Origin: an uncultured virus (IMG/VR IMGVR_UViG_3300029319_000027) | Lineage: Duplodnaviria > Heunggongvirae > Uroviricota > Caudoviricetes | Virus record (IMG/VR): IMGVR_UViG_3300029319_000027 | Reading direction: 5' to 3' (one strand) | DNA length: 64,000 nt | Part shown: piece by piece, positions 44,685 through 62,999 of the stretch | Numbering within the stretch: position 1 is the first letter of the stretch | Layout of the letters: each line of letters begins with the position of its first letter | Translations under genes and position numbers: made by a program | Notes under the pieces: generated by a model | What the model saw: only the letters and a program-made list of their open reading frames with translations | What the model was told of the DNA's origin: nothing | Database searches by the model: none

Positions 44685-44685
44685 A

Positions 44686-44790
44686 CTATCTACACCTCAT
44701 GCAATGTTCATAATTAATTTTAAAAAAATATTCTCCACAATTCATACATGGCTCTAAATCTTTACCTGACCTATTATCTAACAATGCCAC
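44686..44790 (-). CDS. 34-aa Zn-ribbon microprotein
   Basis: GTG start; MALLDNRSGKDLEPCMNCGEYFFKINYEHCMRCR with two CxxC. Confidence 0.45.
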   Translation of the reverse strand: MALLDNRSGKDLEPCMNCGEYFFKINYEHCMRCR

Positions 44791-47700: not shown

Positions 47701-48100
47701 CTACGAATTCTGATAGATCATCTGCAGAGACACCTAACTGTCCTGCTACTTCTCCTAATTTTGCAAGTTCTCCTGCTGCTAAAGGTATTCGTTGTGAAAG
47801 GTCTAATAAATCTGCTTTAATTTGTTCAAAAACTTTAGGGTCTTTAACATCTGACATTGTCTTTTTAACAAGTGCAAATTGGTCTTCAAATCTTATAGCA
47901 GCTTGAGCAGATGTTGCTAATGCTACACCTAGACCTGCAATTGTAGAAACACCAATAACTGAAAGACCTGCTGATGCTTTATTAAAACTTTGAGCTATAT
48001 TACCGACTGATGAAGAAAAGGCTTTTGTTGCCTGATTTGCCATTGCAGCAGCATTAGAACTTATCTTTACAAATAACGAACCTATCTGTTGACTTGCCAT
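44774..48100 (-). CDS. Tail tape measure protein
   Basis: TP901-type core (FEDQFA.VKKT, AGQLG, LGNNVAATESEI), coiled coil and YLVGEYGPE. Confidence 0.95.
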   Translation of the reverse strand: MASQQIGSLFVKISSNAAAMANQATKAFSSSVGNIAQSFNKASAGLSVIGVSTIAGLGVALATSAQAAIRFEDQFALVKKTMSDVKDPKVFEQIKADLLDLSQRIPLAAGELAKLGEVAGQLGVSADDLSEFVEVTGKLSVATNMTGQEAATSMARFLAVVNENTTEIGKFGAILVELGNNVAATESEIINLAQNFGAQATSAGLSAEMTLAFAAAMRETGQQSQAGATALGKFFTILKDAAILGGSEIAKFADVAGMNVDEFRRIVEDDIGGAAQLVLSGFSEISESGGSLNQTLRDLGLGNVRVARALTSLANNEEGLADAINRANKEAVEQNALNEEAEQRFGTIVQLNAQIKSTFNAIAIELGDNLLPLIERFLQAILGITKAFRGLARVLGENLGMFTTLATAGLGLAIRNLKKTGDLFLENAKSSKEAAKGFTRLGVAISKMGKAIKLSTLGPFLAVGVALVVFMKNLKEGQEALDAFTQGGKAVKEAFSDIDGVFSGAFLERQPSVDAFDNLLANLPEAVAEKIREGIREGEVTTDDFLKLFGAEAIPQAVKEQILNALDVGGTGADFATLDRQLLSSAIDSLKEIDKEGYGPLIKSAEEYLDTIARIDGITSEEKEAMRDLILLELQLVNEGVQKREQEKQKLLRLVRDELKEQDKLDTVTSRMLVNEEFLLKTAKDLAGENEDIANALGMQELFLGNQVDELTKMEQFYNAIAQKATDFQTAVNDITGPMKTVMALEDTEDSIVELEERIIELGEERTQVLQDIADINKEIAEVEKEAVLNEEELLEIQELKNEALKIEEQIRNGFALSAEDQLKKEKLKMDLAEVERAASMGSLQFADLERQHILDQIAEIDGKTKTQADADAKRQKAIEMEEDAQTRKEEKLIQLADDRAKAQERLVEIPKEIEKATDGITNAQIRVLDLTVKMYQEMGTFKQTSVDAAIAAAEALGLPIDKMNMLVGLAQKYNNETSAYFTDLDTTSATRRQGFQVRASIMNQLNNPGMYKPGITGSPIARHMGGSFKPGQNYLVGEYGPEMMKAFPGGGGQITPMGGRGSGDTYNTVNLNVSGMPSDPIAARRTAQLIQKELNKLKKDGRSGIVR

Positions 48101-48104
48101 CTAT

Positions 48105-48386
48105 TTATATTCCTAACTCATCCATAGCAGTATCAAGTGATACTGATACTCTTGGGATATTTTTTCCTGTTTTTTCGTTGAATTCTTGTTCTTGTTTCAT
48201 TTCTTCATACAGTTCTGCCATAAATGGCGAATAAAAACTAGATTCTTGGGAAACAAGATTAAACAAGAGAACTCTAAATCGTCTCCATGTTAGGGACAGA
48301 GGGTTTAAATTATAGAACCTTTGAAAATCTGCCTCTACCGAATTCCATCTTTCTACGACATCATCGATAGAGATACTTATTTTGGG
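48105..48386 (-). CDS. Tail assembly chaperone, -1 frameshift extension (T part of G-T)
   Basis: C CCA AAA heptamer directly before TAA; -1 frame open to 48105 encoding WNSVEADFQRFY...LTWRRFRVLL. Confidence 0.85.
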   Translation of the reverse strand, partial: PKISISIDDVVERWNSVEADFQRFYNLNPLSLTWRRFRVLLFNLVSQESSFYSPFMAELYEEMKQEQEFNEKTGKNIPRVSVSLDTAMDELGI

Positions 48387-48721
48387 TCTTCTTCAGTTCC
48401 TTCTGTAACTTCTAAATCGCTTTGATTTTGAATTACTCCGTACTCAACAAGTAACCAACCAAGTAACTCTTCCAACTGCTTCCAACCTACGCCCGACTCT
48501 AACATATCGTTAAGTATCTGGTCTCCAAGTAAAGCACCTAGCCACTTTGTCATGTCGTTAGGGTTCAACTCTCCTGATTCATTTTGCAAAGTTAATTGCA
48601 TCAAAACCACACGAGCAGGTAGCTGGGCAGGTACTTCGTATTCCCGTCCAGCTATCTTGAACTCTAAAGTGTCTTCTACTTCCTCGCTGATTGCTGCGTC
48701 AAAATCTTTATACTCTGACAT
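48377..48721 (-). CDS. Tail assembly chaperone (G)
   Basis: Between major tail and tape measure genes; ends EDPK at the slippery site. Confidence 0.85.
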   Translation of the reverse strand: MSEYKDFDAAISEEVEDTLEFKIAGREYEVPAQLPARVVLMQLTLQNESGELNPNDMTKWLGALLGDQILNDMLESGVGWKQLEELLGWLLVEYGVIQNQSDLEVTEGTEEDPK

Positions 48722-48755
48722 TCTTCTCCTATCTATTTAATTAATTTTAAAAATT

Positions 48756-49355
48756 CTAGACTGTGTCTATAACTTTGAAAATGTTTGCGAATGGAGCACT
48801 ACTGTTAGGCTTCAACACTTTGTATTCAATAGTGATTGTTACCTTTTGTGGTGCTTTTGCATGTACCATGGAGAAAGCTCCAATGTTCACTGCTCTAGGA
48901 ACTTGAATGTCCCTAACTTTAGCTGTTCCTGCTTCATCATTTCCAGGTGCATTAACTCTCAATATCAATGACTTTTCTTCGAAAGAGTCAGTTGTTGGAG
49001 GGGTTAATGTTGTATAACCTGATGATGGAGAGTCTGCTGTGGTTGTACCACCTGCCATAGCGAACTTCAAACTTCTTAGAGAAGCCTGTGCTAATTCTCC
49101 TGTGATTCTTACTTCTTGTGCAGTTTTGATTGTCTTAATTGGATCAACCTCTTCTGCAACTAAAACATCTTCAAATGTTTTGTCATACTCTAATGAAAAT
49201 CCACCTTCGGAATATCCGATGTCATCCCAATAAGATGAACTTGGTGTATCTGCTGGTGTGGTAGGAAATGTTGCAGTTCCTGCATTCACATCTGTCTCAC
49301 TAGCTACATAAAGAGTACCGGTTCCTAAAAGAACTTCTGTAATTGACTTTGCCAT
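48756..49355 (-). CDS. Major tail (tube) protein
   Basis: VLLGTGTLY, DIGYSEGG..L.Y; synteny. Confidence 0.85.
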   Translation of the reverse strand: MAKSITEVLLGTGTLYVASETDVNAGTATFPTTPADTPSSSYWDDIGYSEGGFSLEYDKTFEDVLVAEEVDPIKTIKTAQEVRITGELAQASLRSLKFAMAGGTTTADSPSSGYTTLTPPTTDSFEEKSLILRVNAPGNDEAGTAKVRDIQVPRAVNIGAFSMVHAKAPQKVTITIEYKVLKPNSSAPFANIFKVIDTV

Positions 49356-49391
49356 TACTTATACCTCATTATTTTCTACTTCAGGAATTTG

Positions 49392-49688
49392 TCATTCCTC
49401 TTCTTGCACTTCGTCAGTTTCCTCGATTTCCATCCACTCATCATCATTAGAATCTTCCTCGATTGTCTCGTTTAAAAGATTCACAACTTCTCCCATACCT
49501 TCATCTTTTTCAATGAATGTAGGGATAAGAACATCTCCTTGTTTTGTTTGAGATTCTTTCAATCTCTTCCATTGGGCTTCTGTAACTTCTTCCCACTTAT
49601 AGCCGTCAAAAATTACATCCAACTTTTCATCCCTGATAGAGTCAAAGACCCTTATTAAAGGATTCATTTTCACATATTTTTTACTCAT
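49392..49688 (-). CDS. Hypothetical protein with acidic tail
   Basis: ATGA overlap with the tail terminator gene. Confidence 0.65.
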   Translation of the reverse strand: MSKKYVKMNPLIRVFDSIRDEKLDVIFDGYKWEEVTEAQWKRLKESQTKQGDVLIPTFIEKDEGMGEVVNLLNETIEEDSNDDEWMEIEETDEVQEEE

Positions 49689-50143
49689 GAACTTGCTCCA
49701 TAAATCATTGCTAACTCAGTTGTATACCGAGCTAATCCTAACTCTGATTCTTCCACTCTGAAAGGTCCAGATATAGGATTAAAACCCATTATAACACCCG
49801 AAACTCCACCAGATGAGGTATAGCGTTTCGGTGTAGAGTCAAATGCAACTCTTGCAACATTATTTGCTATTTGAAAAGCTAATCCATAATCAGGATTACC
49901 TTTTGTATTATTAGCACCCCATTGTCCTGCATAACAATCTATATCAAAGTTTGCTTCATAAATTAAAGCTCCACCGTCTTGATTTACAGGAACTGATGAT
50001 TTCAAAACACATACAACAAAAGGCATGGAACCGTTAGAAGGTAATCTTGTTGCTACATTTGTTCCAACATCTGATGTAACTTCTGACTGATCTAACAACC
50101 ATGTTCTCATTAAAATTTCTGAATCAGGTAAATTCTGTGCCAT
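49685..50143 (-). CDS. Tail terminator (DUF3168-like)
   Basis: V.T.LP....PFVV, FDIDCYA; synteny. Confidence 0.75.
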   Translation of the reverse strand: MAQNLPDSEILMRTWLLDQSEVTSDVGTNVATRLPSNGSMPFVVCVLKSSVPVNQDGGALIYEANFDIDCYAGQWGANNTKGNPDYGLAFQIANNVARVAFDSTPKRYTSSGGVSGVIMGFNPISGPFRVEESELGLARYTTELAMIYGASS

Positions 50144-51144
50144 TAATCCATTCCCTTCATTTTTCTAGCATTGTCTGATAATATTCTTTCCCAACTCTTG
50201 TTACCAAACATGACATCTTTTTTATCAAATCCTGATTTTTTGACCATATCTAACATACCTCTTCTCATCATAGCTCCGTTTCTTGAGGATTTTACTGCCC
50301 TACGGTCTCTTGAAGAACTTCTTAATGCCTGGAAAACTTCAGGAGTAGGGAAGTATTTTTCTAAGTACTGAGCTCCAACATTGAATCCTGAGCCTAAACC
50401 ATACTCAATGTATGGTGCATAATTCTTTTCTAATCCATCTCCAATTTCAATAACAGCTTGTGGTAAACCATCTGCACCTTTTCCTGTTACTGAACCTTTT
50501 AGAGTTGACTTCAAAGCACCTGTCCATACAGGTGTAAATTTCTTAACACTAACAATAGATAACATAACGATTGTGTCTAAAGCATTTTCAATAGGTAATC
50601 CTTTTGCTGCTTTTTGTAGATTCATTACTAATTGAGATTCAAATGTTTGACCTCTTACTTGAGTTCTTACTAATCTATCAAACTCTCTCTGTAAGTTTGC
50701 ACCAACAACAGACCTAGCTGCACGAGTTGCAACAGCACTACCTACATTTGATTTAGGCATAGCTTGTAGTATTTTACCTATTGCTCTACCACCAACACGC
50801 CTAACGAAACGCTCTCCAATAGTGTTTGTTGCCTCCATGTCCATAGCTCTTTTGACTGTACCTAGACCTGCGTTAACATCTCCAAGAACTTTACCGAATT
50901 TAAGCATGTTTCCTCTAGCTCTTCTGAAAGGTTTTGTATTAGCAAAGACACCACCAACATCGCCAATAAAGACTGATGATTCATAGATGAAACTTCTTAT
51001 ACCTGCAAGGCTGTCGAATTTATTTTGAAATCTATATCTTTGTGAAGAAGTTTGAAATACAGGATCACCTTTGTAATCTGATATTTGTTGTAATCTACGA
51101 AGTGTTCTTCGAGATACATTAAGTCTTTGTCTAACTTGAGCCAT
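50143..51144 (-). CDS. HK97 gp10-like tail completion protein with long basic N-terminal extension
   Basis: TPVWTGALKSTL and YAPYIEYG motifs. Confidence 0.75.
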   Translation of the reverse strand: MAQVRQRLNVSRRTLRRLQQISDYKGDPVFQTSSQRYRFQNKFDSLAGIRSFIYESSVFIGDVGGVFANTKPFRRARGNMLKFGKVLGDVNAGLGTVKRAMDMEATNTIGERFVRRVGGRAIGKILQAMPKSNVGSAVATRAARSVVGANLQREFDRLVRTQVRGQTFESQLVMNLQKAAKGLPIENALDTIVMLSIVSVKKFTPVWTGALKSTLKGSVTGKGADGLPQAVIEIGDGLEKNYAPYIEYGLGSGFNVGAQYLEKYFPTPEVFQALRSSSRDRRAVKSSRNGAMMRRGMLDMVKKSGFDKKDVMFGNKSWERILSDNARKMKGMD

Positions 51145-51488
51145 TAGAAACCTGAAGAAATAGTTATTCTTTTATAAAATACATTTCCTGATCTGTCTTT
51201 AACATCTTCTACTTTTATGATGTTGTAATAGTCTGTACCAATCTTGACTCTGTTTCTTACAGATACTGAGGTTCCTGCAGGAATAACTACTGTCTTTCTT
51301 TCTACATTAGAAATTATTCCATCGTTTTGAGTTTCTGTAATGTTAGAAGAATCAACTACTCTAGCTTGTACATTGCTTGCACTAGCAGACCATGTTTCAT
51401 TTGATAATCCTCTGTCATCAACACCTGAGCCTGATAGACCTTCTATTGTTATCGATTCGTTTAATAAAGCTGTTGTTAATTGTGGCAT
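51144..51488 (-). CDS. Head closure protein (SPP1 gp16-like)
   Basis: DDRG....W, RNRVKIG..YYNI..V; synteny. Confidence 0.75.
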   Translation of the reverse strand: MPQLTTALLNESITIEGLSGSGVDDRGLSNETWSASASNVQARVVDSSNITETQNDGIISNVERKTVVIPAGTSVSVRNRVKIGTDYYNIIKVEDVKDRSGNVFYKRITISSGF

Positions 51489-51506
51489 ATATTTATGATA
51501 CCAAAT

Positions 51507-51537
51507 AAAAAAGCACTCGTTTGGAACGAATGCTTTC
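51507..51537 (-). terminator. Intrinsic terminator
   Basis: Minus strand AAAGCATTCGTT / AACGAGTGC stem followed by a T-run. Confidence 0.6.
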
Positions 51538-51569
51538 TTACATCGTTTAGTTGGTTATTTAATAATAAA

Positions 51570-52373
51570 TTAGCTTGAGACTGATTTCAACTTATAGCTA
51601 GAAAGTGCAGATTTCACAGACTGAATAGCTTCAGCCCTAGCTTTTGCTTTCCAATCTCCAAGCACTGCTAACTCACTTATTCTTGTAAGTTCATTAGGAT
51701 TTTTATTTATTTCGTTAAATCTCTTTTGCCATTTCATGTAACATTTCTGATAAATTTTACATTGTCCCTGTAGTCCTGAATTAGCATGTGTGCTTCTGTA
51801 AAAGAAACTTGCAGGCAATAATCCAAGTTCAGGTAATGCACTGCAATGTTTTTCAGAAACAGTTGGTATTAAGACAATTCTTTTTTCATAATATTTTTGA
51901 ACTGTTTTCTTATTGCAAGGAATACATCTTCTATTTCTTCCATCAAGATATGATTTGTCAGGATAATAATGATCTATAGGTTTAATTTTTTTGCAAATAT
52001 TACATTGTTTCTCAGCAGGGTTTCTTCTTTTATTATCTGCATATTCTAAAGCTTCATCTAACTGTGCTTGTAAGTACGGATATTCTTCAACCCATTGCAT
52101 AAATGTAGTTTTTCCTAATCCATCAACAACTTGAAAAGTTCTTATAGTATTTAGAGTCCCCCTGCCATCCCTGATGTAAGCAATTACTTTAGATGCTGAT
52201 ACAGGGTTAAAATCTTTGACACCAGGCAGACCCATTTCGACACGAAGCTGGCGAATTCTTTCTCTTGATACATTATATTTTTCTGCCCAAACTTGATTAA
52301 ATGTATGAGGATTAGCTAAAACATCATGTTTTAATTGATTTAATTCTTCTTCTCTAAGTTTCATCCATCCCAT
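51570..52373 (-). CDS. DNA-binding protein: sigma region-4-like HTH plus Cys zinc-binding modules
   Basis: AEKYNVSRERIRQL; KQCNICKKIKP..YY....DG...CIPC. Confidence 0.65.
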   Translation of the reverse strand: MGWMKLREEELNQLKHDVLANPHTFNQVWAEKYNVSRERIRQLRVEMGLPGVKDFNPVSASKVIAYIRDGRGTLNTIRTFQVVDGLGKTTFMQWVEEYPYLQAQLDEALEYADNKRRNPAEKQCNICKKIKPIDHYYPDKSYLDGRNRRCIPCNKKTVQKYYEKRIVLIPTVSEKHCSALPELGLLPASFFYRSTHANSGLQGQCKIYQKCYMKWQKRFNEINKNPNELTRISELAVLGDWKAKARAEAIQSVKSALSSYKLKSVSS

Positions 52374-52457
52374 TCGTATAGGAAAATAATATCATAAACT
52401 TGAAATATATACAAGTTTATGCCTAAAATAGATATATCGGATAGTTGAGGAGATAAG

Positions 52458-52688
52458 TTGGTAGAAGTACCTTATGTCGATACAGCACCCGTCTTTGAGG
52501 ATGAAGTAATTCACAAAGGCGAAAACATGATACATGTAAGGTGGAATCCTTACTTGAATTGCCACGAAGCTGATGTTTATCAGGTCAAGGCAGTTGGGAC
52601 AAAGACATCCTATAAGCATGTTGGTTCAACAGCAGGAAAGTCAAAATCATTAGCTATATCTGACGCAGAAATGCTTATTGTAGATTAG
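52458..52688 (+). CDS. Hypothetical protein
   Basis: GAGGAG RBS before TTG. Confidence 0.65.
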   Translation: MVEVPYVDTAPVFEDEVIHKGENMIHVRWNPYLNCHEADVYQVKAVGTKTSYKHVGSTAGKSKSLAISDAEMLIVD

Positions 52689-52709
52689 TTATCTTACCAA
52701 AGGAGGAAA

Positions 52710-53246
52710 TTGATAGCTGAATGTATGCTATTTTTAGCAAGTTTTTCGACACCCCTAATAGGTTCGGAAACTGAATTCGTTAATACATCAATCGAATGTA
52801 GACGAGAAATACCTGAGAGTATGCGTCAATACTCTGAATATTATTTAGAATTTTTTGATTTCGAAAATATTGATACAGCCGTAAGAATTGGGTGGTGCGA
52901 AAGCAGGGGAAAAGATACTGCATATCGTGATGACAATTCCGATTCAGGCGTTATGCAATTTGTACCTTGGACCTGGAATTGGGTTGCCGAGGAATATGAT
53001 CTGCCGAGGTGGAACGAGTGGGTAATCCTTCGTTATGGGCGACCATACGAAGGTCCCACTTCAAAATCAAACATGGGTTTTGAACAAACAAAAGTTCAAT
53101 TTACTCCTTACTACAACATTATGTTTGCGAGTATCTTAGCTGAGGACATTTATGGAAGAACTCAGTGGAGAGATTGGAACAGTAGTAAGTGGTGTTGGGA
53201 AGACGAAAAAGATTGGGAGAGAAGATGGAAAAGAGAGCAAAATTAA
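52710..53246 (+). CDS. Secreted lytic transglycosylase (SLT/Rpf-like)
   Basis: RIGWCESRG...SDSGVMQF..WTW; AGGAGG RBS; hydrophobic N-terminus. Confidence 0.75.
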   Translation: MIAECMLFLASFSTPLIGSETEFVNTSIECRREIPESMRQYSEYYLEFFDFENIDTAVRIGWCESRGKDTAYRDDNSDSGVMQFVPWTWNWVAEEYDLPRWNEWVILRYGRPYEGPTSKSNMGFEQTKVQFTPYYNIMFASILAEDIYGRTQWRDWNSSKWCWEDEKDWERRWKREQN

Positions 53247-53386
53247 CAGTTCACATTTGTCGAATCTGTAATATCGAATTATCTAAATCTGACGCTCTGT
53301 CAATTTGTGATGTGTGCTTGTATGGAAAATGAAGATAAAGAATATTGTGATGTCTACGGATATGACGATTTAGATGAGGAGTTATA

Positions 53387-53746
53387 ATGTATGGATTAAT
53401 GATAGTTATGTTGATGGGTGGTGGTTTCATGCCACAACTCTCAGGACCTTTACCAATATTTCATGGACCTGATTTATCTCAACCAAATGTTGAATACAAT
53501 TTTTGGTGTGATGGTAACAGGTGCGATGACCACGATATTAAAGGTTACATAAAAAGTGTAGATGCTGATGGTACTATTACCTGGTATACAACTGAAGAAC
53601 AAATAGATTTAGATATAAGTTCTTTAGAAGATTGGCAAATAATAAGATACACTGCTTCAGAAATGAGTGAATTAGATATTGTTCCTGAAGACTGTACTAC
53701 AGAAGAAGAACAGAATGGTATCTGTGGATTTGGAATTAGACCATGA
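53387..53746 (+). CDS. Hypothetical protein
   Basis: GAGGAG RBS; hydrophobic N-terminus. Confidence 0.65.
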   Translation: MYGLMIVMLMGGGFMPQLSGPLPIFHGPDLSQPNVEYNFWCDGNRCDDHDIKGYIKSVDADGTITWYTTEEQIDLDISSLEDWQIIRYTASEMSELDIVPEDCTTEEEQNGICGFGIRP

Positions 53747-53834
53747 AAAAAAGAAGATTTAGAAAAGAACTACATGAATGGACATATGAGGTAAATTGGA
53801 ATCACAGTTTGCCTGTTTATGGAGATAAGAAAAA

Positions 53835-55439
53835 ATTAAAATAGGAAGTTTATTTAGTGGGATTGGGGGCTTAGACCTAGGTATCGAGCGTGGTCTAAAA
53901 GACTTTAATGCTGAGACTGTATGGCAAATTGAATTTGATGAATACTGTTGTTCAGTTTTGGAAAAAAGATTCCCCAATTCTAAAGTTATTAATGCCGATA
54001 TTAATGATGTAGACTTTACTAAACTAGAACCTGTCGATATTTTAATCGGTGGATTCCCATGCCAAAGTTTTAGTTACGCAGGTAACAGGAAAGGAATGAG
54101 TGAAGAAGATGAGCGAGGAATATTATGGTATCAGTTCGAACGAGCCATTAGCATTCTTAAACCAAAATGGGTTGTGGCAGAAAATGTCAGAGGACTCCTC
54201 ACAGCAAAAGACAACGAAGGAAACAAAGGAGGAGCATTCGGAAGAGTTGTTTCTTTCCTTTCCGATAGGGGGTATAGTGTTGAATGGCAAATTGTATCAG
54301 CAGCCTCGGTTAATGCCTCGCACCTTAGAGAAAGAATCTTCATCGTGGGAAACTCCGAACACTTTAGATCACTTGAAACCAAGGACGGGGGAAGCGTTGG
54401 AGAACGCACTCTACCGTGGGGACAAATCAAAAAAGAGCAAGAGGAAAAGTACAGGCAACTTGAGAGAGAATCCCAAGCTATGGTCAACTCCGAGAGCAAG
54501 TCAAGCATCGAAACCGATAAACAAACAAGCTCCCTCAGTGAAAGCAGGGAAGCACGGGTCGACATTGGAGATGGACATGGGGGAGAGGAATCCGAAATTG
54601 ATTGGGAAAAGATTACACAGCAAGTGGGTCTCCCTTCTAATGGGTTTTCCCCAGGATTGGCAGGAAGATTAGGCTTACCTAATTATTGGACTTACAACAG
54701 AGATTTAATGTGGCGTACTCCCACAACAATGGATTCCAAATCAGGAGAAGATGCATTAAAGTACGCAACAAAATTACTACAAGGAAAAACACACAGAGCT
54801 TCAGGTCAACCGGTACAAATAACTTTGGCTGACCAAATAGCCATAGACCAAATACACAAGAATCCTGATCTGTTCGAAAAATACAAAGACCATGAGATTT
54901 ATAAAAGACCTAACCTACCTCCACAAAAAACTTTTGTTAAGTACTTAAAAGATAATGTAACAAGGTCTACCTTATACGATGCACTAGATGTAAAGAAAAC
55001 AACTATCGACCATTGGTTTAGAAATGATAAATACTTTTCATATCCCTCAATGGAAGATTGGGAAAAACTAAAACCATATTTGAAAGTTATTAAATACGAT
55101 GAAGAAATGACAACAATTGAAAGTTTTGAATGGCAAAAACAAAAATGGCAAACACCTTTAGTTACAAGCAGTAGACCTAGTACTAAACGAATAGCAGAAG
55201 GAATAAATCCAAAAGGGAATTTAGCAGAGAATCCTGATGTTTATAAAGATGAATACATCATAGAACCATGGGAAACAGTTCCAAGGACAATAGAGGACGA
55301 GGAAAAGCGTGTAGATAAAATAAAGGCACTTGGGAACGCTGTAGTGCCTGCCTGTGCAGAGTTTATCGGCATTTGTATATCCAATGCCATAAAATTTAAA
55401 ACAATTGTTTTTGACGCAGATATGTTAGAAGATTGGTAA
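53835..55439 (+). CDS. DNA C5-cytosine methyltransferase, alpha chain (motifs I-VIII and X)
   Basis: SLFSGIGG, GGFPCQ, ENV, RER.F and ALGNAV. The frame extends upstream of the track's TTG to ATT 53835, after an in-frame TAA at 53826. Confidence 0.9.
   Translation: MKIGSLFSGIGGLDLGIERGLKDFNAETVWQIEFDEYCCSVLEKRFPNSKVINADINDVDFTKLEPVDILIGGFPCQSFSYAGNRKGMSEEDERGILWYQFERAISILKPKWVVAENVRGLLTAKDNEGNKGGAFGRVVSFLSDRGYSVEWQIVSAASVNASHLRERIFIVGNSEHFRSLETKDGGSVGERTLPWGQIKKEQEEKYRQLERESQAMVNSESKSSIETDKQTSSLSESREARVDIGDGHGGEESEIDWEKITQQVGLPSNGFSPGLAGRLGLPNYWTYNRDLMWRTPTTMDSKSGEDALKYATKLLQGKTHRASGQPVQITLADQIAIDQIHKNPDLFEKYKDHEIYKRPNLPPQKTFVKYLKDNVTRSTLYDALDVKKTTIDHWFRNDKYFSYPSMEDWEKLKPYLKVIKYDEEMTTIESFEWQKQKWQTPLVTSSRPSTKRIAEGINPKGNLAENPDVYKDEYIIEPWETVPRTIEDEEKRVDKIKALGNAVVPACAEFIGICISNAIKFKTIVFDADMLEDW
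54100..54672 (+). CDS. C5 methyltransferase beta chain nested in an alternative frame (motif IX)
   Basis: AGGAAAGG upstream of GTG; W.TP modules; ends KRLHSKWVSLLMGFPQDW. Confidence 0.75.
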   Translation: MKKMSEEYYGISSNEPLAFLNQNGLWQKMSEDSSQQKTTKETKEEHSEELFLSFPIGGIVLNGKLYQQPRLMPRTLEKESSSWETPNTLDHLKPRTGEALENALYRGDKSKKSKRKSTGNLRENPKLWSTPRASQASKPINKQAPSVKAGKHGSTLEMDMGERNPKLIGKRLHSKWVSLLMGFPQDWQED

Positions 55440-55445
55440 AAAGTA

Positions 55446-55477
55446 TGTAACCTTTTTAGATTCAAAGAGTCTAAATA
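55446..55477 (+). promoter_or_regulatory. ECF-like promoter copy 6
   Basis: TGTAAC 55446-55451, GTCTAA 55469-55474, 17-bp spacer; directly before the adenine methyltransferase RBS. Confidence 0.8.
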
Positions 55478-55490
55478 GTAGGAGGAGATA

Positions 55491-56039
55491 ATGACAAAAG
55501 GAGAAGGAAATTTTCACGGATTTAATCCAAATAGTAATGTAAATAAATCCAAAGAATGGTACACACCAAGGAAGATAATAGATGCTTTGGGCTTACATTT
55601 CGATTTGGACCCTGCATCATCTGAGAAAGCAAATACGCTTATTAAAGCAGATAATATCTTTACTAAAGAAGATGATGGGCTAACTAAAGAGTGGTTTGGT
55701 AAAGTATGGTTAAATCCACCATATGGAAAAGATACACCAATTTGGTTAGATTATGCTTTACAACAAATAGCAAAGAATGATGTAGAAGTTGTTTCTTTAA
55801 TATTTTCTAGAACAGATACAAGGTGGTTTCATGATTTGTGTACACAATTCAATATGCTTTGTTTTGTGAAAGGGCGTATAAACTTTATTGACGGTAATAC
55901 AATGGAAAAGGGACAAGGCTCAACAAACGGTAGTTTGATTGTTGCTAGTGGACCTACAGTTGAACAAGCTGTACTAAATTCAGGTCTTGGGTACTGTGTG
56001 CAAAGATATCCACAGTATCAAGCATCTGATTTTATTTAG
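55491..56039 (+). CDS. Phage N6-adenine DNA methyltransferase (phage Dam family)
   Basis: EWYTP, FDLDPAS, DGL...W, WLNPPY, RTDT.WF and GRI.F. Confidence 0.9.
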   Translation: MTKGEGNFHGFNPNSNVNKSKEWYTPRKIIDALGLHFDLDPASSEKANTLIKADNIFTKEDDGLTKEWFGKVWLNPPYGKDTPIWLDYALQQIAKNDVEVVSLIFSRTDTRWFHDLCTQFNMLCFVKGRINFIDGNTMEKGQGSTNGSLIVASGPTVEQAVLNSGLGYCVQRYPQYQASDFI

Positions 56040-56046
56040 GAGGGAC

Positions 56047-56211
56047 ATGCTAAAAAAATTATGGATAAAACTCAAAGATAGAGTTAGTTATATCATTGAG
56101 CTTCGTATTTATGAAAAACAAAAAAGAGCACAAGACCTTTGGGTAGTCGAACAAGAAGAACTAGATAAACTGCTTGGTACAGATTACGCAAAAGATATAG
56201 AAGAAGAATGA
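56047..56211 (+). CDS. Small hypothetical protein
   Basis: AGGAGG RBS before ATG (MLKKLW...). Confidence 0.55.
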   Translation: MLKKLWIKLKDRVSYIIELRIYEKQKRAQDLWVVEQEELDKLLGTDYAKDIEEE

Positions 56212-56377
56212 TAGAAAGATTTAAAGAAATAGAAAACAGAGTATTTTCTGCACCATACAAGTGGCTAATTAGAAAAGGTTACATTGTTGCTAAAAGAGTG
56301 TATTTAACTATGGATGACTTATATCAAACAAAAGTTCTTGATAGTTATAGAGGAAATCCTAATTTTCCAGGAGACGA

Positions 56378-56617
56378 TTAAAACTTAACTTTTCTTTTTG
56401 CTGCTTTTTTTGCTTTATCTCTCATAGAACTAGATACTTTACTAGGATCAGTATTCCAATCAATACCAACAGTTCCGTAGAGATTAACTGAAGAGCTAAT
56501 TTGTCTATTAGATATTGCTTTACATTTTTCACATTTAATCTCAGGGTCTTCATGAATTGAGTGTGTTACTTCGAATAAATGTTCACATTTAGAACATTTA
56601 TAATCGTATCTAGCCAT
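56378..56617 (-). CDS. FmdB-family zinc-ribbon protein
   Basis: YDYKCSKCEH.FE...CEKC...RQISS. Confidence 0.85.
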   Translation of the reverse strand: MARYDYKCSKCEHLFEVTHSIHEDPEIKCEKCKAISNRQISSSVNLYGTVGIDWNTDPSKVSSSMRDKAKKAAKRKVKF

Positions 56618-56808
56618 TATTCATCAAAGGCTTTGCAAATCTTTAAGTAAAGATTTACCATATCATCTGCATCTTGTACAAGATTGATACCTTTGATACG
56701 CATGTAATTGAATTGTTTTAGAACCATTTCTTTAAATTGCTCGTCATCAATTAGTTCGTTTACTGCGTCTTCTCGTTTTGTCCCATCAGGGAATCTTAAG
56801 TCTTCCAT
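56617..56808 (-). CDS. Hypothetical protein
   Basis: TAATG-coupled on both sides. Confidence 0.65.
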   Translation of the reverse strand: MEDLRFPDGTKREDAVNELIDDEQFKEMVLKQFNYMRIKGINLVQDADDMVNLYLKICKAFDE

Positions 56809-57494
56809 TAGTCTAGTATACCTGCAGAAGTGAAGAATTGCCTCTTATATTTAGAAAGTGCCCTTTTCTCTTCTACTGTTAACAAATCTTGGCTAAACAA
56901 TTCCATCGGAGATTCATATACAACTGAATAGTCTCCTATTTTTTCTTGTTTTACCATTTGGAATTTTGCATCAGAAGTATTATCTGATAAATGAGTTCCA
57001 ACAGTTCCTGTGCTTTGTTGAGTTCCTAAACTTGCACTTGCTGCAAATAATCTAGCTGCAACTCTTGCACTGATGTACTTAATATCTTTTGGTACATCCT
57101 CTGCTGAACTTTCGCTATCTGAATAACCTGCAGAATAAACTACAGTAATATTTTGTAACTTTGCATCTGACCATGTCTCTAATGCTGTTCTTCTCAATCT
57201 ACCCAGGTTGGAATAAAGAACATAATCGTTTGAGTTTCCCTCAGAGAGGGCATTACCATCTTCGGTAACAGATGTTACTGATACTACAGGTGATCTAGAT
57301 AAAAATAAATCTTCGGTATTGTCTCCATCGAATTTTTCGGTTATTGAAGCTGTATAATCTAATTCGTAACCTACGAAGTTGTCTATGGCTTGGTCTGCTG
57401 TTGGTATAAATAAATTTGTAACAGTTGATTCATCAGTAGTATTTAAATCAACGCCAAGCACTTTTTCGACATCGGAAACAGAAGAAAGTGCCAT
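56808..57494 (-). CDS. Head-tail adaptor (gp6/gp15-like)
   Basis: PVVSVTSV, VVYSAGY, VPKDIK and EKIGDYSV.Y. Confidence 0.85.
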   Translation of the reverse strand: MALSSVSDVEKVLGVDLNTTDESTVTNLFIPTADQAIDNFVGYELDYTASITEKFDGDNTEDLFLSRSPVVSVTSVTEDGNALSEGNSNDYVLYSNLGRLRRTALETWSDAKLQNITVVYSAGYSDSESSAEDVPKDIKYISARVAARLFAASASLGTQQSTGTVGTHLSDNTSDAKFQMVKQEKIGDYSVVYESPMELFSQDLLTVEEKRALSKYKRQFFTSAGILD

Positions 57495-57502
57495 GTTAGG
57501 AC

Positions 57503-57772
57503 CTACTTATCTTCTTTTGGCTTAACTGCTTTTGTTTCTACTTTTTTCTTTGGAGCTGCTTTTTTTGCAGGAGCTTTTTTAGGAGCTGCTTTCTTCTTAG
57601 CAGGAGCTTTCTTGCCCCAACCTTGTTCTTTAAGCCACTCAGTAGGATATTCTTTTCCTGCTTTAGCGATTAAAGATGCACCTGATTTAGGTAGTTCTGA
57701 TACAGGACCTTCCCAAATAGTACCATCGCTTAGTTTCCAAATACTTTTTTCTGGTTTTGTAAAATCTGACAT
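57503..57772 (-). CDS. Small capsid-adjacent protein with Lys/Ala/Pro repeats
   Basis: KKAPAKKKAAPKKAPAKKAAPKKK tail. Confidence 0.7.
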   Translation of the reverse strand: MSDFTKPEKSIWKLSDGTIWEGPVSELPKSGASLIAKAGKEYPTEWLKEQGWGKKAPAKKKAAPKKAPAKKAAPKKKVETKAVKPKEDK

Positions 57773-57800
57773 TATTTTCCTTTTTTAATAATTGTAGTTT

Positions 57801-57827
57801 GAAAGGGGTAGGGTTGCTACCCCTTTC
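57801..57827. terminator. Hairpin after the capsid gene
   Basis: GAAAGGGGTAG / CTACCCCTTTC. Confidence 0.65.
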
Positions 57828-57854
57828 GTAAACTATCTAACAAATACTCCTAAT

Positions 57855-59111
57855 TTAGAAGTTTGTTATTTTGTGGAAAGCTGCTTGCCTGTAAACAGGG
57901 AAACCGACTCTCATTGTTGCTCTAATAGCGAGCTGATTCTTAATAAAGAAATCAGAGTGGCTATCAGAAACAGCGATGTCCATTCCTTGTCTCATGACAA
58001 CATGAGCTGCTTCTCCACCACCAAACTTACCGACAAGAACAGTGTTCTCAGCGATAGCTGTGGTTGGGACAACTTTTAATCCCCAAATGGATGCTACAGG
58101 AGCATTGCCCATGGCACCTGCTGCCATGAATAGTGGGACATTAGCTGCATATCCTGCAGATGAGTCTCCAGCAAATCCTGTTAAGGATGTTACTACTGTA
58201 TTCCAATCGTTTGGATGCATAACTATTGCATCTGGTTCTGTAAATGCATTAACACGAATGTTTGTAATTGCACTATAAATCGCACCAACTCTACCTAAGT
58301 TACCATTGAACTCAGTTGAGTAGTTTGTAGAACCAACATTTGATTTACCTGCGTCCAAGATACCTTCTAGGTTTGGAGCAGAACCGTCTCCTGAAAGGAG
58401 TTGGCTGTCCAAACGAAGTTTAATCATTGTTTGTAATCTTGAGTTTAAGTAACCTTGAATTCCAGCTTCATCAGCTAATAATTCATCAGTAACAGGCAAG
58501 AATACACCAAGTTTTCTGATGGATTCTGTGTTTTCTGTGAATGCTAATGCACCTTCGCCAACGGCTGAACCTTCAGCAGCTTCTGCTGCGTTGTTTGTGA
58601 AGGTTGTTTCTTCCAAATAACTGAAAGAGTTTTGATCAGTTGTAATTTGGTCGAATAAGCCGATGACAGAATCAGGGTCTCTTAAAGCAGTCTCAAGAAT
58701 ACCTGGTTGTCTTAGGACCTCAGGTGGATAACCTGTGGTTGTTAATGTGGTTTTTGTTTCAAGATTGTTAGGAGCAAATTTTACTCTGCTGTCTACACCC
58801 TTGATACCACTGTCCTTATAATTTTTCCAAGCATCTGACTTAACAAATTGCTCTCCAATTGTAAGGGTTTCATTCTCTGTTGGGAAATTGCTTGCTACAG
58901 GTTGTGAATCAGCATCAATAGCTTTTTCATTTTTCGCTTGAGCAGATTTAAGATTTACTTCTTCGACTAAAGAAGCGAGTTCTTCGTTTCTTTTTCCGAT
59001 TTCATTCTTTTGCTCTGTAGAATATTTTCCATCCTCTGAGGATTCAAATAATTCTTTTAGCTCAACTCTTTTAGCAGCTAATTTCTCACGGAGGTCTTTG
59101 ATATCTGACAT
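57855..59111 (-). CDS. Major capsid protein, HK97 fold with N-terminal delta domain
   Basis: AEG, VTDELLAD, GDG..PNLEGIL, VMHP.DW and F.KNQLAIRA.MR; AGGAG RBS before ATG 59111. Confidence 0.95.
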   Translation of the reverse strand: MSDIKDLREKLAAKRVELKELFESSEDGKYSTEQKNEIGKRNEELASLVEEVNLKSAQAKNEKAIDADSQPVASNFPTENETLTIGEQFVKSDAWKNYKDSGIKGVDSRVKFAPNNLETKTTLTTTGYPPEVLRQPGILETALRDPDSVIGLFDQITTDQNSFSYLEETTFTNNAAEAAEGSAVGEGALAFTENTESIRKLGVFLPVTDELLADEAGIQGYLNSRLQTMIKLRLDSQLLSGDGSAPNLEGILDAGKSNVGSTNYSTEFNGNLGRVGAIYSAITNIRVNAFTEPDAIVMHPNDWNTVVTSLTGFAGDSSAGYAANVPLFMAAGAMGNAPVASIWGLKVVPTTAIAENTVLVGKFGGGEAAHVVMRQGMDIAVSDSHSDFFIKNQLAIRATMRVGFPVYRQAAFHKITNF

Positions 59112-59127
59112 TGATATTCTCCTATTG

Positions 59128-60495
59128 CTAAATTTCGTCTTCTTCTTCTGTTTCAGCAATTAATGAGTCTGCGATTGTTCTTTGAGTTTCCATGAGTAGA
59201 GACTCTAAATCTTCATCAATTTCATCAGTTGCCACTTCTTCAGTTACAGCTTCGACAGGAACTTCAACTTCTTCAATTACTTCAACTTCTGCTTCTGCAA
59301 TCTCAGCTTCTTCAGTTTCTTCAACTTCTTCAACTGCGACTTCTTCAACTTCAGTTTCAACAACTTCTTCTGTCTCTGTATCCACATCGTCTACTTCAAC
59401 TTCTTCTTCTACTGCAGTAGCAGTAGCTTCAGGAAGTGTTCCGACTTCTTCGATGATTTCATCAATCTCGGTCCATGCGTCATTCAAATCTTCACGGACT
59501 GCATTAAGTGCTTCGGTTGCCTTTTCTGACAATTTCCTACCATCCTTTACTCGTAATAAGCCAATTGCTTTGGCTCGTACTATGAGGCTATCCAATGCAG
59601 CAAGCACATCTTTTACCTCTTCAGAGAAAGTCAACCCTGTCAAGCTAGGTGCCTTTCCTGAATCCTTTTCCTCAGATACATCATCTTCAGGAGTATCTGA
59701 TTCTTCGACAATTTCCTCGCCCATTTCATCTTCAGGCTCTGGATCATTTGTCTCAACATCTTTAATTTCTGTTTCTTCGTCAATAGATTTTCCTACTGCT
59801 TCTTCATACTCTTCATGTGTTTTACATGGCATAAATACTTCTTTGCCATCTACTTCATGAGTGTGAACGCCAACAGGACAACTTAATTCTTTTGACCTGT
59901 TCATAGCTTCAGCAGGATTATCAAAAGTATCTTTTGCATATGCTGCTTTTTCTTCTTCTACTGATTCAGTATCTACAACTTTTTGTTCCAATTCGTCTTT
60001 TTCTGAGGCTTCTTTAATAGCCATGGTATAGGTTTCTTGATTAGCACCAACTAGAACAGGGGAGACTTCGTAAACTGTTAAATCTTTGAGGTATCTTGCA
60101 GTTTCTTCTTCAGCATCAGCAGATTTTTGCCATTTGCCTACTTCTGAATCTTCAACTCTAAAACCAAAAGACCATTGTTGTAAATCGCCCATTGATTTGA
60201 CTAAGTTATAAGCTTCTTTTCCTGCTTCAGTATCCATGAAAAAATTACCTTCAAAGGTAGCTTTGTCATTGTCTTGTTTAATTTTTCCTTTTCCAATAGG
60301 CATGTCCCATTTGTGAGACCAAACCATAGGAACATCGCCTGATTTAAAACCTGACCTTACTGCTCCTGGAATGACAACATCGCCATCGCTATCTTTATTG
60401 TTGAATACTGAGAAAACTGCTTCTACAGCTCCCTTTTTAGATTTTGATTTTTTAAGTTCTATTTCAAACTCTTTTTTTTCTTTTTGTTCGTCCAT
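59128..60495 (-). CDS. HK97-type prohead protease with acidic C-terminal extension
   Basis: DSDGDV, WSH...PIG, WSFGF and YEVSPVLVGAN. Confidence 0.92.
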   Translation of the reverse strand: MDEQKEKKEFEIELKKSKSKKGAVEAVFSVFNNKDSDGDVVIPGAVRSGFKSGDVPMVWSHKWDMPIGKGKIKQDNDKATFEGNFFMDTEAGKEAYNLVKSMGDLQQWSFGFRVEDSEVGKWQKSADAEEETARYLKDLTVYEVSPVLVGANQETYTMAIKEASEKDELEQKVVDTESVEEEKAAYAKDTFDNPAEAMNRSKELSCPVGVHTHEVDGKEVFMPCKTHEEYEEAVGKSIDEETEIKDVETNDPEPEDEMGEEIVEESDTPEDDVSEEKDSGKAPSLTGLTFSEEVKDVLAALDSLIVRAKAIGLLRVKDGRKLSEKATEALNAVREDLNDAWTEIDEIIEEVGTLPEATATAVEEEVEVDDVDTETEEVVETEVEEVAVEEVEETEEAEIAEAEVEVIEEVEVPVEAVTEEVATDEIDEDLESLLMETQRTIADSLIAETEEEDEI

Positions 60496-60554
60496 AACTC
60501 CTATACCTCTTCCTTTTTATAATAACGCAAAAAATGGTCGATTGTCATATATTG

Positions 60555-62999
60555 CTAATTAGTGTGTCCTAATATCTCTTGTGCCTTTTTGTTACGAGCA
60601 TTAACTTTCTTTTTTTGCTCATTGACAAGTTTTTTCATTTCTGAAACACCACCTGTTGTAACTCCACCCCACTTCATAACTGCAATAGCACCATTCAATC
60701 TATTATTATTTTTATGACGATTCATAAAGCGTTCTCTTCGTTTTACCCAAGAAAGCACAGAAGCTGATCTATCGCCTGCTTTATACTTTGTCCATCTGTT
60801 AAAAGCATCATTGCCTGTAAATGCAGTTGGTGGGTTACCACCTGTTCCTGCTCTTCTCCAAATGGTTGGGTAATTTTCTTTTAAATCTTTTACATAGTTG
60901 TAGTCAGGGAATTGTCTGTACTGAGAGTTGCTCAAACTAATTTTTTGATTGTCTCCTGATTTTGGAAAGTTTGTAATTTTATCTTTCTTTTCTGATTTAC
61001 GCCAATCTTTAATTTTTTGTAATTTAGAAATTGGCTGTGTAACATTTCTATCTGTTTTTTTATGAGAACCGTCATCCATGATTGCCCAAACATTCATTGT
61101 TGCATTTTCTTTAGAAACAGAAACAACAACACCGTGAACTGTTGATGGTGGGTCTGGGTCTTTATTTATTGACCAACTAACTGTATCTCCAACACTTACA
61201 GAACTAGCTTTACTGTTCTCAGGCTCTATCTCAAAAGACTGTTCATATAAAGTTTCTGCCTCTTCTGTAGATACTTTTAGTTCTTCAATACCTCCTGATT
61301 TCTTAGAAGATAATGGATGTCCAGCAGGGAGCAGGTCTTGGTCAAAAGGCTTGCGTGGGAATCTTCCCTTTAATCCCTTAATAAAGGCATTAACCCGGGC
61401 TAATCCCCATTGGGTAGCACCTGTTACATTACCTCTTACCGAAGATGGATTTGTTCGATAAGCACCTACTCCTCTCCTGAACACTGCAGCTAACATTCTA
61501 TAGTTAGCTCTGTACTTAGGATTCTTTGCGTTATGGTCTTTTACTTTCTTTTGAAGACTCTTTTTGACTTTTGCAGAAATAGCAGTTGATTTTAGTCTTG
61601 TTGGTTTTTCAACAATTTTAGGACTTCTTTCGCTTTCAACACTTGCACCTTCAGTAGTCAATACATCTTTTAGTTCAAAAGATTTTTCAGGGAGTATAGG
61701 GTTTGCGTAATCTTCTTCTTTTGTAGGTTGTAAGTTTAATGGTCTTAGATAAACTGAATGGTCATCACTAGCATCTAAGCCAACTGCTTTTCTAGCTTCT
61801 CCAACTGTTATCCAACCACCTTGAACACCTGTGTTCATTCTCTTGAATACTTCAGACTTATCTGCATCTAGTGCTCTAACTTCTCCTAGATCATACTTAC
61901 AAACAAGTTTTGTATCTGAAGTAAAGTCTGCTTGTAATAGCTGAGATGTTATTTCATTAGCAACTGTTTGCCATAAAGGAATTAATTTTTGCTCAGTAAA
62001 AAATTCTCTAAGCTCTCTCGTGTTATTGTAAGTAGCAGCTTCAAGACCTGCACCTAATCCTGCAAGAATAGCAGGAACACCAAGAACAGCAGAAACTCTT
62101 TCTTCAGGAAGTCTTCTTAGTTTATTTAAATTTAATTGTTCAGGAGACCATGAAACTACTTTGACATCCATAGAGCCTGTAAGAATCATAGGAGCTCCTC
62201 TGTTTGCTCCACCGAATTTTTGTTTGTAAATCTGTGCGATAGCTTCTGCTTCATCTTTTGAAGGACCACCCATAGAGTCATCTTTTGGAGAAAGTATCAC
62301 TCCTGGTACAGCCATGTTATGCAAAAGGGCTGCTGCATATTGCCCTGCTGCTTCGTCTCCTAAAATTTCTCTTAACACAGATTTAAGGGGAGCAAAACCT
62401 TTTCTGTGGTCATTTGGGTCTATTCCTTGTCGGATATGTACTACCTCACTAGCAGGTATAACTTGAAATTCGTTTATTGATGTACTTCGTTCTTTTACAT
62501 AATATTCATAATGAGTTATGAGTTGTTCTTCATTACCTCTAGGTTTTACATAACTTGGAAGCAATGGAACTAATTCAACAACCCTGCCACTTCTTGCACG
62601 ATTCTTGAATAAGTATGCATCTCCTGTTGCATTCAAGGCTGTAATAATATAGTTCGCTAGTAAAGAACCTGATGTATATTGATTTGGTCTTGTAAGTAAT
62701 TGATTTACAGGATGGTCTTCTTGTTCAACCATTTCCCCGTTTTCTCTTTTGTAAACTTTTAATGATGGTTCAGCGAATGATGTGGATAAAACATTTAGAC
62801 ATGCAACAACTGCTGAGTTACCTGTGCCGTCTCCAACTTCTTGTAATTTTTTATCTGGAAAATATCCTGAACTTGTATTGTATCCATACACTAATGGATC
62901 AACACCTAGTGATTGATTATAGTTCAAGCCTTTAACCCTTTCGGGTGGTGCTTGCAAATATTCTACAAACCTTCTAAAACGAGACTTATCCTCTGCCAT
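60555..62999 (-). CDS. HK97-family portal protein with ~370-aa C-terminal multi-domain extension
   Basis: HP...LL.RPN, G.AY, EVVHIR, G.APL, LGVP and IT.GEARK. Confidence 0.92.
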   Translation of the reverse strand: MAEDKSRFRRFVEYLQAPPERVKGLNYNQSLGVDPLVYGYNTSSGYFPDKKLQEVGDGTGNSAVVACLNVLSTSFAEPSLKVYKRENGEMVEQEDHPVNQLLTRPNQYTSGSLLANYIITALNATGDAYLFKNRARSGRVVELVPLLPSYVKPRGNEEQLITHYEYYVKERSTSINEFQVIPASEVVHIRQGIDPNDHRKGFAPLKSVLREILGDEAAGQYAAALLHNMAVPGVILSPKDDSMGGPSKDEAEAIAQIYKQKFGGANRGAPMILTGSMDVKVVSWSPEQLNLNKLRRLPEERVSAVLGVPAILAGLGAGLEAATYNNTRELREFFTEQKLIPLWQTVANEITSQLLQADFTSDTKLVCKYDLGEVRALDADKSEVFKRMNTGVQGGWITVGEARKAVGLDASDDHSVYLRPLNLQPTKEEDYANPILPEKSFELKDVLTTEGASVESERSPKIVEKPTRLKSTAISAKVKKSLQKKVKDHNAKNPKYRANYRMLAAVFRRGVGAYRTNPSSVRGNVTGATQWGLARVNAFIKGLKGRFPRKPFDQDLLPAGHPLSSKKSGGIEELKVSTEEAETLYEQSFEIEPENSKASSVSVGDTVSWSINKDPDPPSTVHGVVVSVSKENATMNVWAIMDDGSHKKTDRNVTQPISKLQKIKDWRKSEKKDKITNFPKSGDNQKISLSNSQYRQFPDYNYVKDLKENYPTIWRRAGTGGNPPTAFTGNDAFNRWTKYKAGDRSASVLSWVKRRERFMNRHKNNNRLNGAIAVMKWGGVTTGGVSEMKKLVNEQKKKVNARNKKAQEILGHTN

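Follow-up and report, generated by a model that had tools for sequence, protein, structure and literature searches.

A dual-coded, probably heterodimeric C5 methyltransferase of the M.EcoHK31I type in an uncultured marine phage

M.EcoHK31I of E. coli HK31 (YGGCCR) is a heterodimeric cytosine-5 (C5) DNA methyltransferase whose two chains come from a single stretch of DNA. As set out in the available portions of two papers, its beta chain is encoded inside the alpha gene in another reading frame, motif IX is on beta and motifs I-VIII and X are on alpha, and the enzyme depends on both chains (PMC2836561, PMC3404938); the beta N-terminus matters for association (PMC2836561), and M.AquI and M.EcoHK31I are the only two-chain C5 enzymes named in the available portion of PMC3404938. 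Here we describe a locus of this layout in an uncultured marine phage of ~36% guanine-plus-cytosine (GC) content, IMG/VR record IMGVR_UViG_3300029319_000027, of which 64,000 nucleotides were analysed on one strand (the window; positions are counted from its first letter). A gene at 53835..55439 on the + strand holds two overlapping open reading frames (ORFs), alpha and beta, and very probably represents a dual-coded, most likely heterodimeric phage C5 methyltransferase of the M.EcoHK31I type. An earlier note, made from the letters of the window, had proposed a two-chain C5 enzyme from overlapping frames with M.EcoHK31I as its precedent. When the sequence was re-read, every string and coordinate in that note proved correct, and its description of the M.EcoHK31I beta chain agrees with what the two papers say in the portions available. 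Its proposal is now supported by the openness of both frames, the conservation of beta, a conserved ATG with a Shine-Dalgarno-like element, nesting in 90 of 111 loci, and a docking model.

Two open frames, each under selection

The alpha ORF (53835..55439, + strand, 534 codons) lies in a frame that is open from 53829 and ends with the stop codon at 55437-55439. Its protein matches Pfam family PF00145 (E 1.6e-51, best over residues 4-226) and PHROGs family phrog_363 (E 5.4e-61), and full-length homologues exist at 42-98% identity. Motifs I, IV, VI and VIII follow in the order of DNA (cytosine-5) methyltransferases: motif I, FSGIGG, for S-adenosylmethionine binding (53853..53870); motif IV, GFPCQ, with the catalytic cysteine (54051..54065), where F76, P77, C78 and Q79 are invariant in 24 homologues; and motifs VI, ENV (54180..54188), and VIII, HLRERIFIVG (54321..54350). 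After an overprinted linker and a module-bearing tail come the pre-X segment EPWETVPR and motif X, LGNAVVP (together 55263..55349; motif X at residues 501-507, 55329-55349), in which W481, E482, P485, R486, L501, G502, N503, A504, V505, V506 and P507 are invariant among homologues. The linker (54351..54710, 120 residues between motif VIII and WRTP, 72% of them polar, charged, Gly or Pro) is little conserved across homologues, yet always stop-free, and it makes few confident contacts in the complex model described below. It is mostly a shadow of the beta coding sequence, kept free of stops.

The earlier note had seen no clear motif IX in this long frame and an IX-like string at the end of a shorter, nested one, and both observations hold. 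In neither chain does motif X follow motif IX within ~20 residues; the full motif set needs both. Beta (54109..54672, + strand) lies wholly inside alpha in its +1 frame, with 187 codons counted from the ATG at 54109 and 190 from an alternative GTG at 54100. Its C-terminal end carries a motif IX of the MGFP..W type, RLHSKWVSLLMGFPQDW (54610..54660); beta ends five codons later, and motif X stands in the alpha frame 657 nucleotides downstream of the beta stop. Beta residues 168-186 align with RMSPYFVEWMMGFPEGWTE of the single-chain relative L036 (L numbers denote the loci compared), directly before the motif X of that enzyme (E 0.003). Directly before motif X, single-chain relatives have ECERLQGFPDGWT (L026) or FVEWMMGFPEGWT (L036), and the spacing from RLQGFPDGW to GNAV in canonical relatives is the same as in the L036 comparison. 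Alpha residues 456-522 also align with the IX-X region of L036 (E 0.001), with the degenerate alpha segment YIIEPWETVP opposite YFVEWMMGFP. Since this degenerate segment is all that alpha has at the place of motif IX, and beta aligns with the motif IX of L036, a canonical motif IX is absent from alpha and is supplied by beta. In both its full nesting in another frame and its division of motifs, I-VIII and X on alpha and IX on beta, the pair has the M.EcoHK31I arrangement.

Beta belongs to a large family, with 637 homologues at E <= 0.001 in a set of 1.84 billion representatives, and PHROGs assigns it to phrog_1008, 'DNA methyltransferase' (E 8.2e-10). No Pfam family matched beta or its last 33 residues, nor did any match 15 of the 16 beta homologues scanned. 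Ahead of motif IX, beta carries W-x-T-P modules (54346..54501): WETPNTLD at 54346-54369, GNLRENP at 54454-54474 and WSTPRAS at 54481-54501. Across 48 beta-family sequences W80, T82, P83, T127 and P128 are invariant or nearly so.

The beta start is conserved together with the sequence before it. A putative Shine-Dalgarno-like element, AGGAAAGGAA (54087..54096, + strand), is made by the R-K-G codons of alpha, and in 12 of 12 marine loci inspected GAAAGGA(A/G), encoded by the (R/Q)-K-G codons of alpha, precedes the beta ATG. That ATG also stands at the homologous place in all 12 and derives from the conserved Asp-Glu codons of alpha (GAT GAG). In the window locus the element lies at a long spacing, 13 nucleotides, from the ATG at 54109; by its position it may serve the beta start.

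The alpha start is less ordinary. There is no in-frame ATG in alpha; where L004, L006 and L007 have their ATG, the alignment puts ATT 53835, which has a GGAG upstream. Among relatives, L003 and the distant L005 also have ATT at this place, and L008 and L010 have TTG. The true alpha start is not ATG, GTG or TTG, and for this reason the gene-caller product for the contig, P0008 (493 residues), begins only after motif I, at TTG 53958. A six-codon upstream ORF (ATG GAG ATA AGA AAA AAT TAA, 53819..53839, + strand) ends in a stop codon that overlaps the alpha ATT. The same overlap occurs in L003 and in L005 (~1463-1483: ATG CAA GGA GAT TCT AAT TAG), and in close homologues such as P0005 this ATG is instead in frame with alpha (MERKKIKIG..). 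The upstream ORF may provide translational coupling, with termination and reinitiation at the non-AUG alpha start.

Both frames are kept open, and there is selection on each. The +1 frame has no stop in the 187 overlap codons, against 23 in the 254 codons of the alpha-only 3' part and 8 in the 93 of the 5' part, and the +2 frame has 15 stops over the same 187 codons. Synonymous shuffles of the window locus that keep the alpha protein leave the +1 frame open in 1 of 2000 cases, and shuffles that keep the beta protein leave alpha open in 0 of 2000. Over a sample of 18 loci of our choosing (the window locus and 17 further loci), the fraction of shuffles with an open +1 frame was at most 0.038, and beta-preserving shuffles left alpha open in 0 of 2000 for 16 of the 18, the exceptions being L012 (0.026) and L016 (0.0015).

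DNA comparison within the subclade shows which frame is protected where. Using a beta-guided codon alignment, we compared the frames in the ten pairs among the window and L004, L005, L006 and L007, whose alphas are 71, 45, 53 and 44% identical to that of the window. From the W.TP motif to the beta stop, beta of the window is 94, 79, 83 and 70% identical to these four relatives and alpha 58, 43, 50 and 36%; over the W.TP-to-IX stretch, beta identity exceeds alpha identity in 10 of 10 pairs. Nucleotide identity between the window and L004 at beta codon positions 1, 2 and 3 is 91, 97 and 63%, the differences concentrating at the third. The possibility, named in the earlier note, that the beta frame might not be conserved is contradicted by beta identities of 70-94% against 36-58% for alpha. 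Over alpha motifs V-VIII, alpha conservation equals or exceeds that of beta in 10 of 10 pairs. Conservation is therefore opposite in the two halves of the overlap, and each frame dominates one half. Shuffling of the V-VIII stretch of the window locus predicts 5.7 stops in the +1 frame, against 1 seen. Depletion is likewise found in L026, L037, L064 and L081, which were intended as controls and hold another nested ORF, described below; in the true negatives L018, L032, L034 and L048 the +1 ORFs at this place span only 64, 5, 3 and 14 amino acids. The locus offers a clear natural example of long dual coding, with dominant selection switching frame between the halves of the overlap.

Spread of the nested layout and of its modules

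With a beta-family profile built from 48 sequences we searched every + strand ORF of the loci retrieved, setting aside 51 loci in which alpha was cut by the locus end. Loci were counted by the motif-IX part of the profile, as its N-part alone also matches relatives with no motif IX in the +1 frame. Of the 111 loci whose alpha is complete, 90 have the motif-IX part in the +1 frame, with its end within alpha. Among the viral loci, window included, 62 of 76 are nested; one has the match past the alpha stop (L015), one has it in the alpha frame (the single-chain L036), and 12 have no match. Of 35 metagenome loci, 28 are nested and seven are without a match. Because loci were picked by likeness to the window alpha, the census describes one clade and not all C5 methyltransferases. 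In most relatives the +1 ORF opens already before motif IV. Judged by these ORFs and profile matches, the nested layout prevails in this large phage clade. A search of the full-text literature, with subscription journals and REBASE outside its scope, found no description of a phage-wide nested C5 methyltransferase family, and the papers it covered mention no two-chain C5 methyltransferases other than M.EcoHK31I and M.AquI. Annotation has missed or truncated the layout, as in the record of Paenibacillus phage Harrison, which is without beta, and in the called product of the present contig, which is without motif I; correct gene models are needed for work on phage methylomes and anti-restriction.

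Two side observations concern other nested ORFs. L022, L026, L037, L064 and L081 are ordinary single chains with motif IX in the alpha frame that still have a +1 ORF of 187-224 codons (e.g. L026 1547-2110), with the conserved string ..RLMNWGMTVNGKCLTAKI..ECSLSDILEE..KYFLS. Past motif VIII it is better conserved than alpha; it represents a further kind of ORF, distinct from beta, nested in C5 methyltransferase genes. The most extreme nesting is in L028 (1498-3297), where a 541-codon +1 ORF with seven T-P motifs and the helix-turn-helix (HTH) module runs almost end to end through a 599-residue alpha, which reads through ~400 codons of low-complexity shadow sequence.

The window also belongs to a small group with modules on alpha. 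Past the IX part of beta, the alpha tail continues for ~256 residues, with WRTPTTMD, a 146-residue module and WQTP..GNLAENP; the median tail in the 90 nested loci is 31.5 residues. T-P motifs occur on the alpha tail in only seven of the 90 (window, L003-L006, L084 and L085) and are absent from the other 83. The first alpha module (54711..55148, + strand, 146 residues; WRTPTTMD at 54711-54734) embeds an HTH-like domain and is modelled at a predicted local distance difference test (pLDDT) score of 81. The second, W-Q-T-P..GNLAENP (55146..55235, + strand; WQTP at 55146-55157, GNLAENP at 55215-55235), has other T-P modules in its place in homologues. In the homologue alignment, W295, T297, P298, T299 and D302 of the tail are invariant or nearly so.

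W-x-T-P modules do stand in both frames, as first reported. The proposed relatedness of all four is confined to short motifs: WQTP..GNLAENP of alpha and WETP..GNLRENP of a relative's beta compare at E 0.47. For the insert between WRTP and WQTP, the fold matches behind the HTH-like reading are weak, with Z up to 5.7. Helices are modelled at module residues 72-82, 85-91, 96-102 and 114-123, and VIA-align places residues 67-137 near Xre, cI and C-protein domains at Z 4-5.7, a range (Z < 8) that can reflect a common arrangement; 7t8i_B, for instance, gives Z 5.5 at a root-mean-square deviation of 2.6 over 58 aligned residues, and rank 1 is a ribosomal chain. Foldseek returned nothing from the PDB at E <= 0.001 for the module model, and the module matches no Pfam family and no named family in PHROGs or the protein atlas.

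This module was found in 14 loci and on both chains: in the alpha frame in five (window and L003-L006), in the beta frame inside alpha in six (L008-L011, L028 and L111, the last placed with uncertainty as its alpha is cut), and as a C-terminal extension of beta past the alpha stop in three (L051, L071 and L072). Residues 294-443 of the window alpha and 122-272 of the L009 beta are 54% identical (E 3e-52). A second module type, TPTTQD..GRR..SLNL.D.V, is alpha-borne in P0058 and beta-borne in L009 (E 4e-11). Where the module is alpha-borne the +1 frame is closed, and where it is beta-borne alpha crosses it as a low-complexity linker. The comparison indicates that recognition modules moved between the chains during evolution, and because they did, the alpha tail and the middle of beta can be regarded as one functional lobe. 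Tentatively, this recognition lobe could be a composite of interchangeable W-x-T-P modules shifted between frames, with specificity combinatorial across the chains and possibly more than one target. The long alpha tail with W-x-T-P modules, the frame-switching HTH-like module and the ATT start of alpha are particular to the subclade. Movement of modules between chains makes the evolution and engineering of methyltransferase specificity, including split, targetable enzymes, directly testable.

Docking of the chains and competing readings

Modelling of alpha with beta, which the earlier note had called for, docked the two chains with a score of 0.80 (runs 0.79, 0.84 and 0.80), against 0.00 for the best of three controls. 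The runs share at least 72% of contacts, and partner pLDDT is at least 59. Among solved complexes, 116 of 157 reach the mark for this score, as do 2 of 215 mismatched pairs; these counts are only approximate here because our own alignments were used. In the model, beta 167-182 (motif IX) touches alpha 481-508 (the pre-X segment and motif X) and 12-17 (motif I), and beta 54-57 pairs with alpha 150-154, the lowest-error contacts joining alpha 151-153 to beta 55-57. The latter contact involves a beta hairpin, IGGIVLNGKLYQQ (54265..54303, + strand), with strands at E55-58 and E61-64 in the beta model. The model supports docking of alpha and beta and leaves binding as a prediction. Two observations concern the DNA under this contact: the coding sequences of the paired alpha strand (54276-54290) and of the beta strand (residues 54-57) overlap or adjoin on the DNA, and the TGG codon of the invariant alpha Trp153 forces Gly60 of beta.

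A mechanism can be sketched from sequence and model. Ribosomes would start at the weak ATT 53835 to make alpha, with its catalytic Rossmann domain (I-VIII), 120-residue hydrophilic linker, two-module tail around the HTH-like domain, and motif X, which would fold back onto the catalytic domain. Others would start in the +1 frame at the internal ATG 54109, helped by the Shine-Dalgarno-like element that the R-K-G codons create, and make beta. The beta N-terminal hairpin would dock on the alpha strand and its motif IX helix would pack against motifs X and I, so that alpha and beta rebuild the usual two-lobed enzyme with a recognition lobe formed by beta and the alpha tail. That beta is translated, and that the pair is a heterodimer with enzyme activity and a DNA target, is what the sequence suggests.

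Several points weigh against a two-chain enzyme of this kind. Translation of beta, and the need of alpha for it, are deductions from the coding sequence. Alpha alone might retain some activity because, unlike most relatives, it has T-P modules of its own and, where motif IX would stand, a degenerate segment. The model may owe its IX-X packing, and with it the complex score, to monomeric C5 methyltransferases of solved structure, in which motif IX packs on motif X. ATT is a rare start codon, and if it went unused alpha would be without motif I. The N-part of the beta profile matches the +1 frame of 12 relatives that have no motif IX there, so likeness in this part is not independent evidence; it may be partly forced by the conserved motifs of alpha or come from a different nested ORF, and five of the 12 (L022, L026, L037, L064 and L081) do hold the other +1 ORF described above. 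Lastly, beta alone matches no solved fold: searching solved-structure sequences with the beta-family profile gave no match below E 0.43, the best Foldseek match of the beta model in the PDB has E 4.1, and a wide VIA-align search gave no chain at Z >= 2. Beta modelled alone has a pLDDT of 70.7, good over residues 80-187 and poor over 1-46; because it is partly disordered, the absent matches are not evidence of a new fold.

The alternative that survives best, though we consider it improbable, is that alpha is self-sufficient in this subclade, its tail forming a recognition lobe in cis and beta offering an alternative lobe in trans, with two modes or specificities. The rarity of the long, T-P-bearing alpha tail, its conserved positions from W295 to D302 and the alignment of alpha 456-522 with the IX-X region of L036 all fit this account. 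Alpha, however, is without the MGFP..W signature, and the L036 alignment is driven by motif X. The EP..R pre-X segment also occurs in short-tailed alphas that are clearly without motif IX, and the complex model puts the motif IX of beta on motif X beside the pre-X segment, where it does not compete with it.

Programmed frameshifting into one polypeptide, with the alpha frame read to motif VIII, the +1 frame for recognition and motif IX, and the alpha frame again for motif X, is very unlikely. The order of motifs I-VIII, T-P modules, IX and X across frames 0, +1 and 0 is indeed that of a normal single chain (L036 or L019, for example). With two shifts an open alpha frame over the overlap would be unnecessary, yet alpha is open there in every nested locus tested, and the shuffles above show how rarely that would persist (0 of 2000). 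The beta frame, moreover, is open for ~75 codons before motif VIII, from a conserved ATG that has a Shine-Dalgarno-like element, and in most relatives the +1 ORF begins before motif IV. Least probable of all, the beta frame would be the decaying remains of an earlier recognition domain or a product of misassembly, with only alpha of consequence; gene callers do give only the truncated P0008 and Pfam is blind to beta, but beta outstrips alpha in identity where it carries its modules, its changes concentrate at third codon positions, the independent viral contig L003 carries the same sequence at 99%, and the family has its 637 homologues.

Neighbouring genes and known systems

The gene lies in a + strand island at ~52.4-56.4 kb within an otherwise - strand region, and GC and AT skew change sign in 52001-56000. 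The island resembles a methylase cassette, holding two small unknown ORFs, the two-chain C5 methyltransferase and, as the next gene and not part of the enzyme, a Dam-like N6-adenine methyltransferase (55491..56039, + strand; PF05869, E 4e-23; phrog_111, E 8.4e-42). PHROGs also places a head-tail adaptor gene nearby. No restriction gene was seen beside the methyltransferase gene, and the enzyme is likely an orphan that would methylate phage DNA against host restriction. Adjoining the island, 51570-52373 on the - strand encodes a 267-residue protein whose residues 111-165 have weak PHROGs matches to a Lar-like restriction alleviation protein, endonuclease VII and HNH families (E 9e-9 to 5e-5). 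A megablast of positions 44000-64000 of the window against phage records gave no match.

Bacillus phages SPR, phi3T and rho11s have multispecific C5 methyltransferases that are single chains, each recognition unit reading one target. The present enzyme resembles them in having several short recognition units in tandem in a variable region; unlike there, the sequence of the W-x-T-P modules does not imply that one module equals one specificity. A two-subunit prophage methyltransferase considered as a parallel was dropped, as the available portion of its report describes an MT-A70 enzyme with an adjacent subunit (PMC10810198).

M.AquI and the split methylases of actinophages likewise consist of two polypeptides cut after motif VIII. 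In Mycobacterium phage Severus (gp77/gp76) and Gordonia phage McKinley (gp4/gp5), the second chain carries L-L-P-T-P modules and an EWMMG.P.GW motif IX and belongs to the same family as beta; our beta profile matches the second Severus gene at E 1.7e-14. Pfam gave no methylase match for the split or AquI-like second chains scanned (P0003, P0004, P0150 and L015). In M.AquI, Severus and McKinley, motif X (GNGV) is on the second chain, which mostly lies downstream of a short alpha without X. Here, by contrast, X remains on alpha and beta is fully nested, so the second chain does not combine IX with X as in M.AquI.

Nested relatives of the present enzyme exist in other phages. Paenibacillus phage Harrison (NC_028746, L164) has an annotated 260-residue methyltransferase at 1008-1790 and, at 1192-1704, an unannotated +1 ORF of 170 codons with LLPTPTKSQ.., MGFPIGWT and LEALMGFPIGWTDV. 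In enzymes of the Harrison type the alpha tail is short and has no T-P modules, unlike the ~256-residue, module-bearing tail of the window alpha.

Of the described systems, M.EcoHK31I gives the layout to which the present one conforms, judged by the available portions of its published description: beta is fully nested in another frame, and the modelled docking of the beta N-terminal hairpin on alpha fits the reported need for the beta N-terminus. The two differ in how recognition is apportioned. As described there, the recognition domain of M.EcoHK31I is on alpha and beta provides motif IX only, whereas beta here also carries two conserved W-x-T-P modules, and alpha, at 534 residues, has extra modules, an HTH-like insert and an ATT start.

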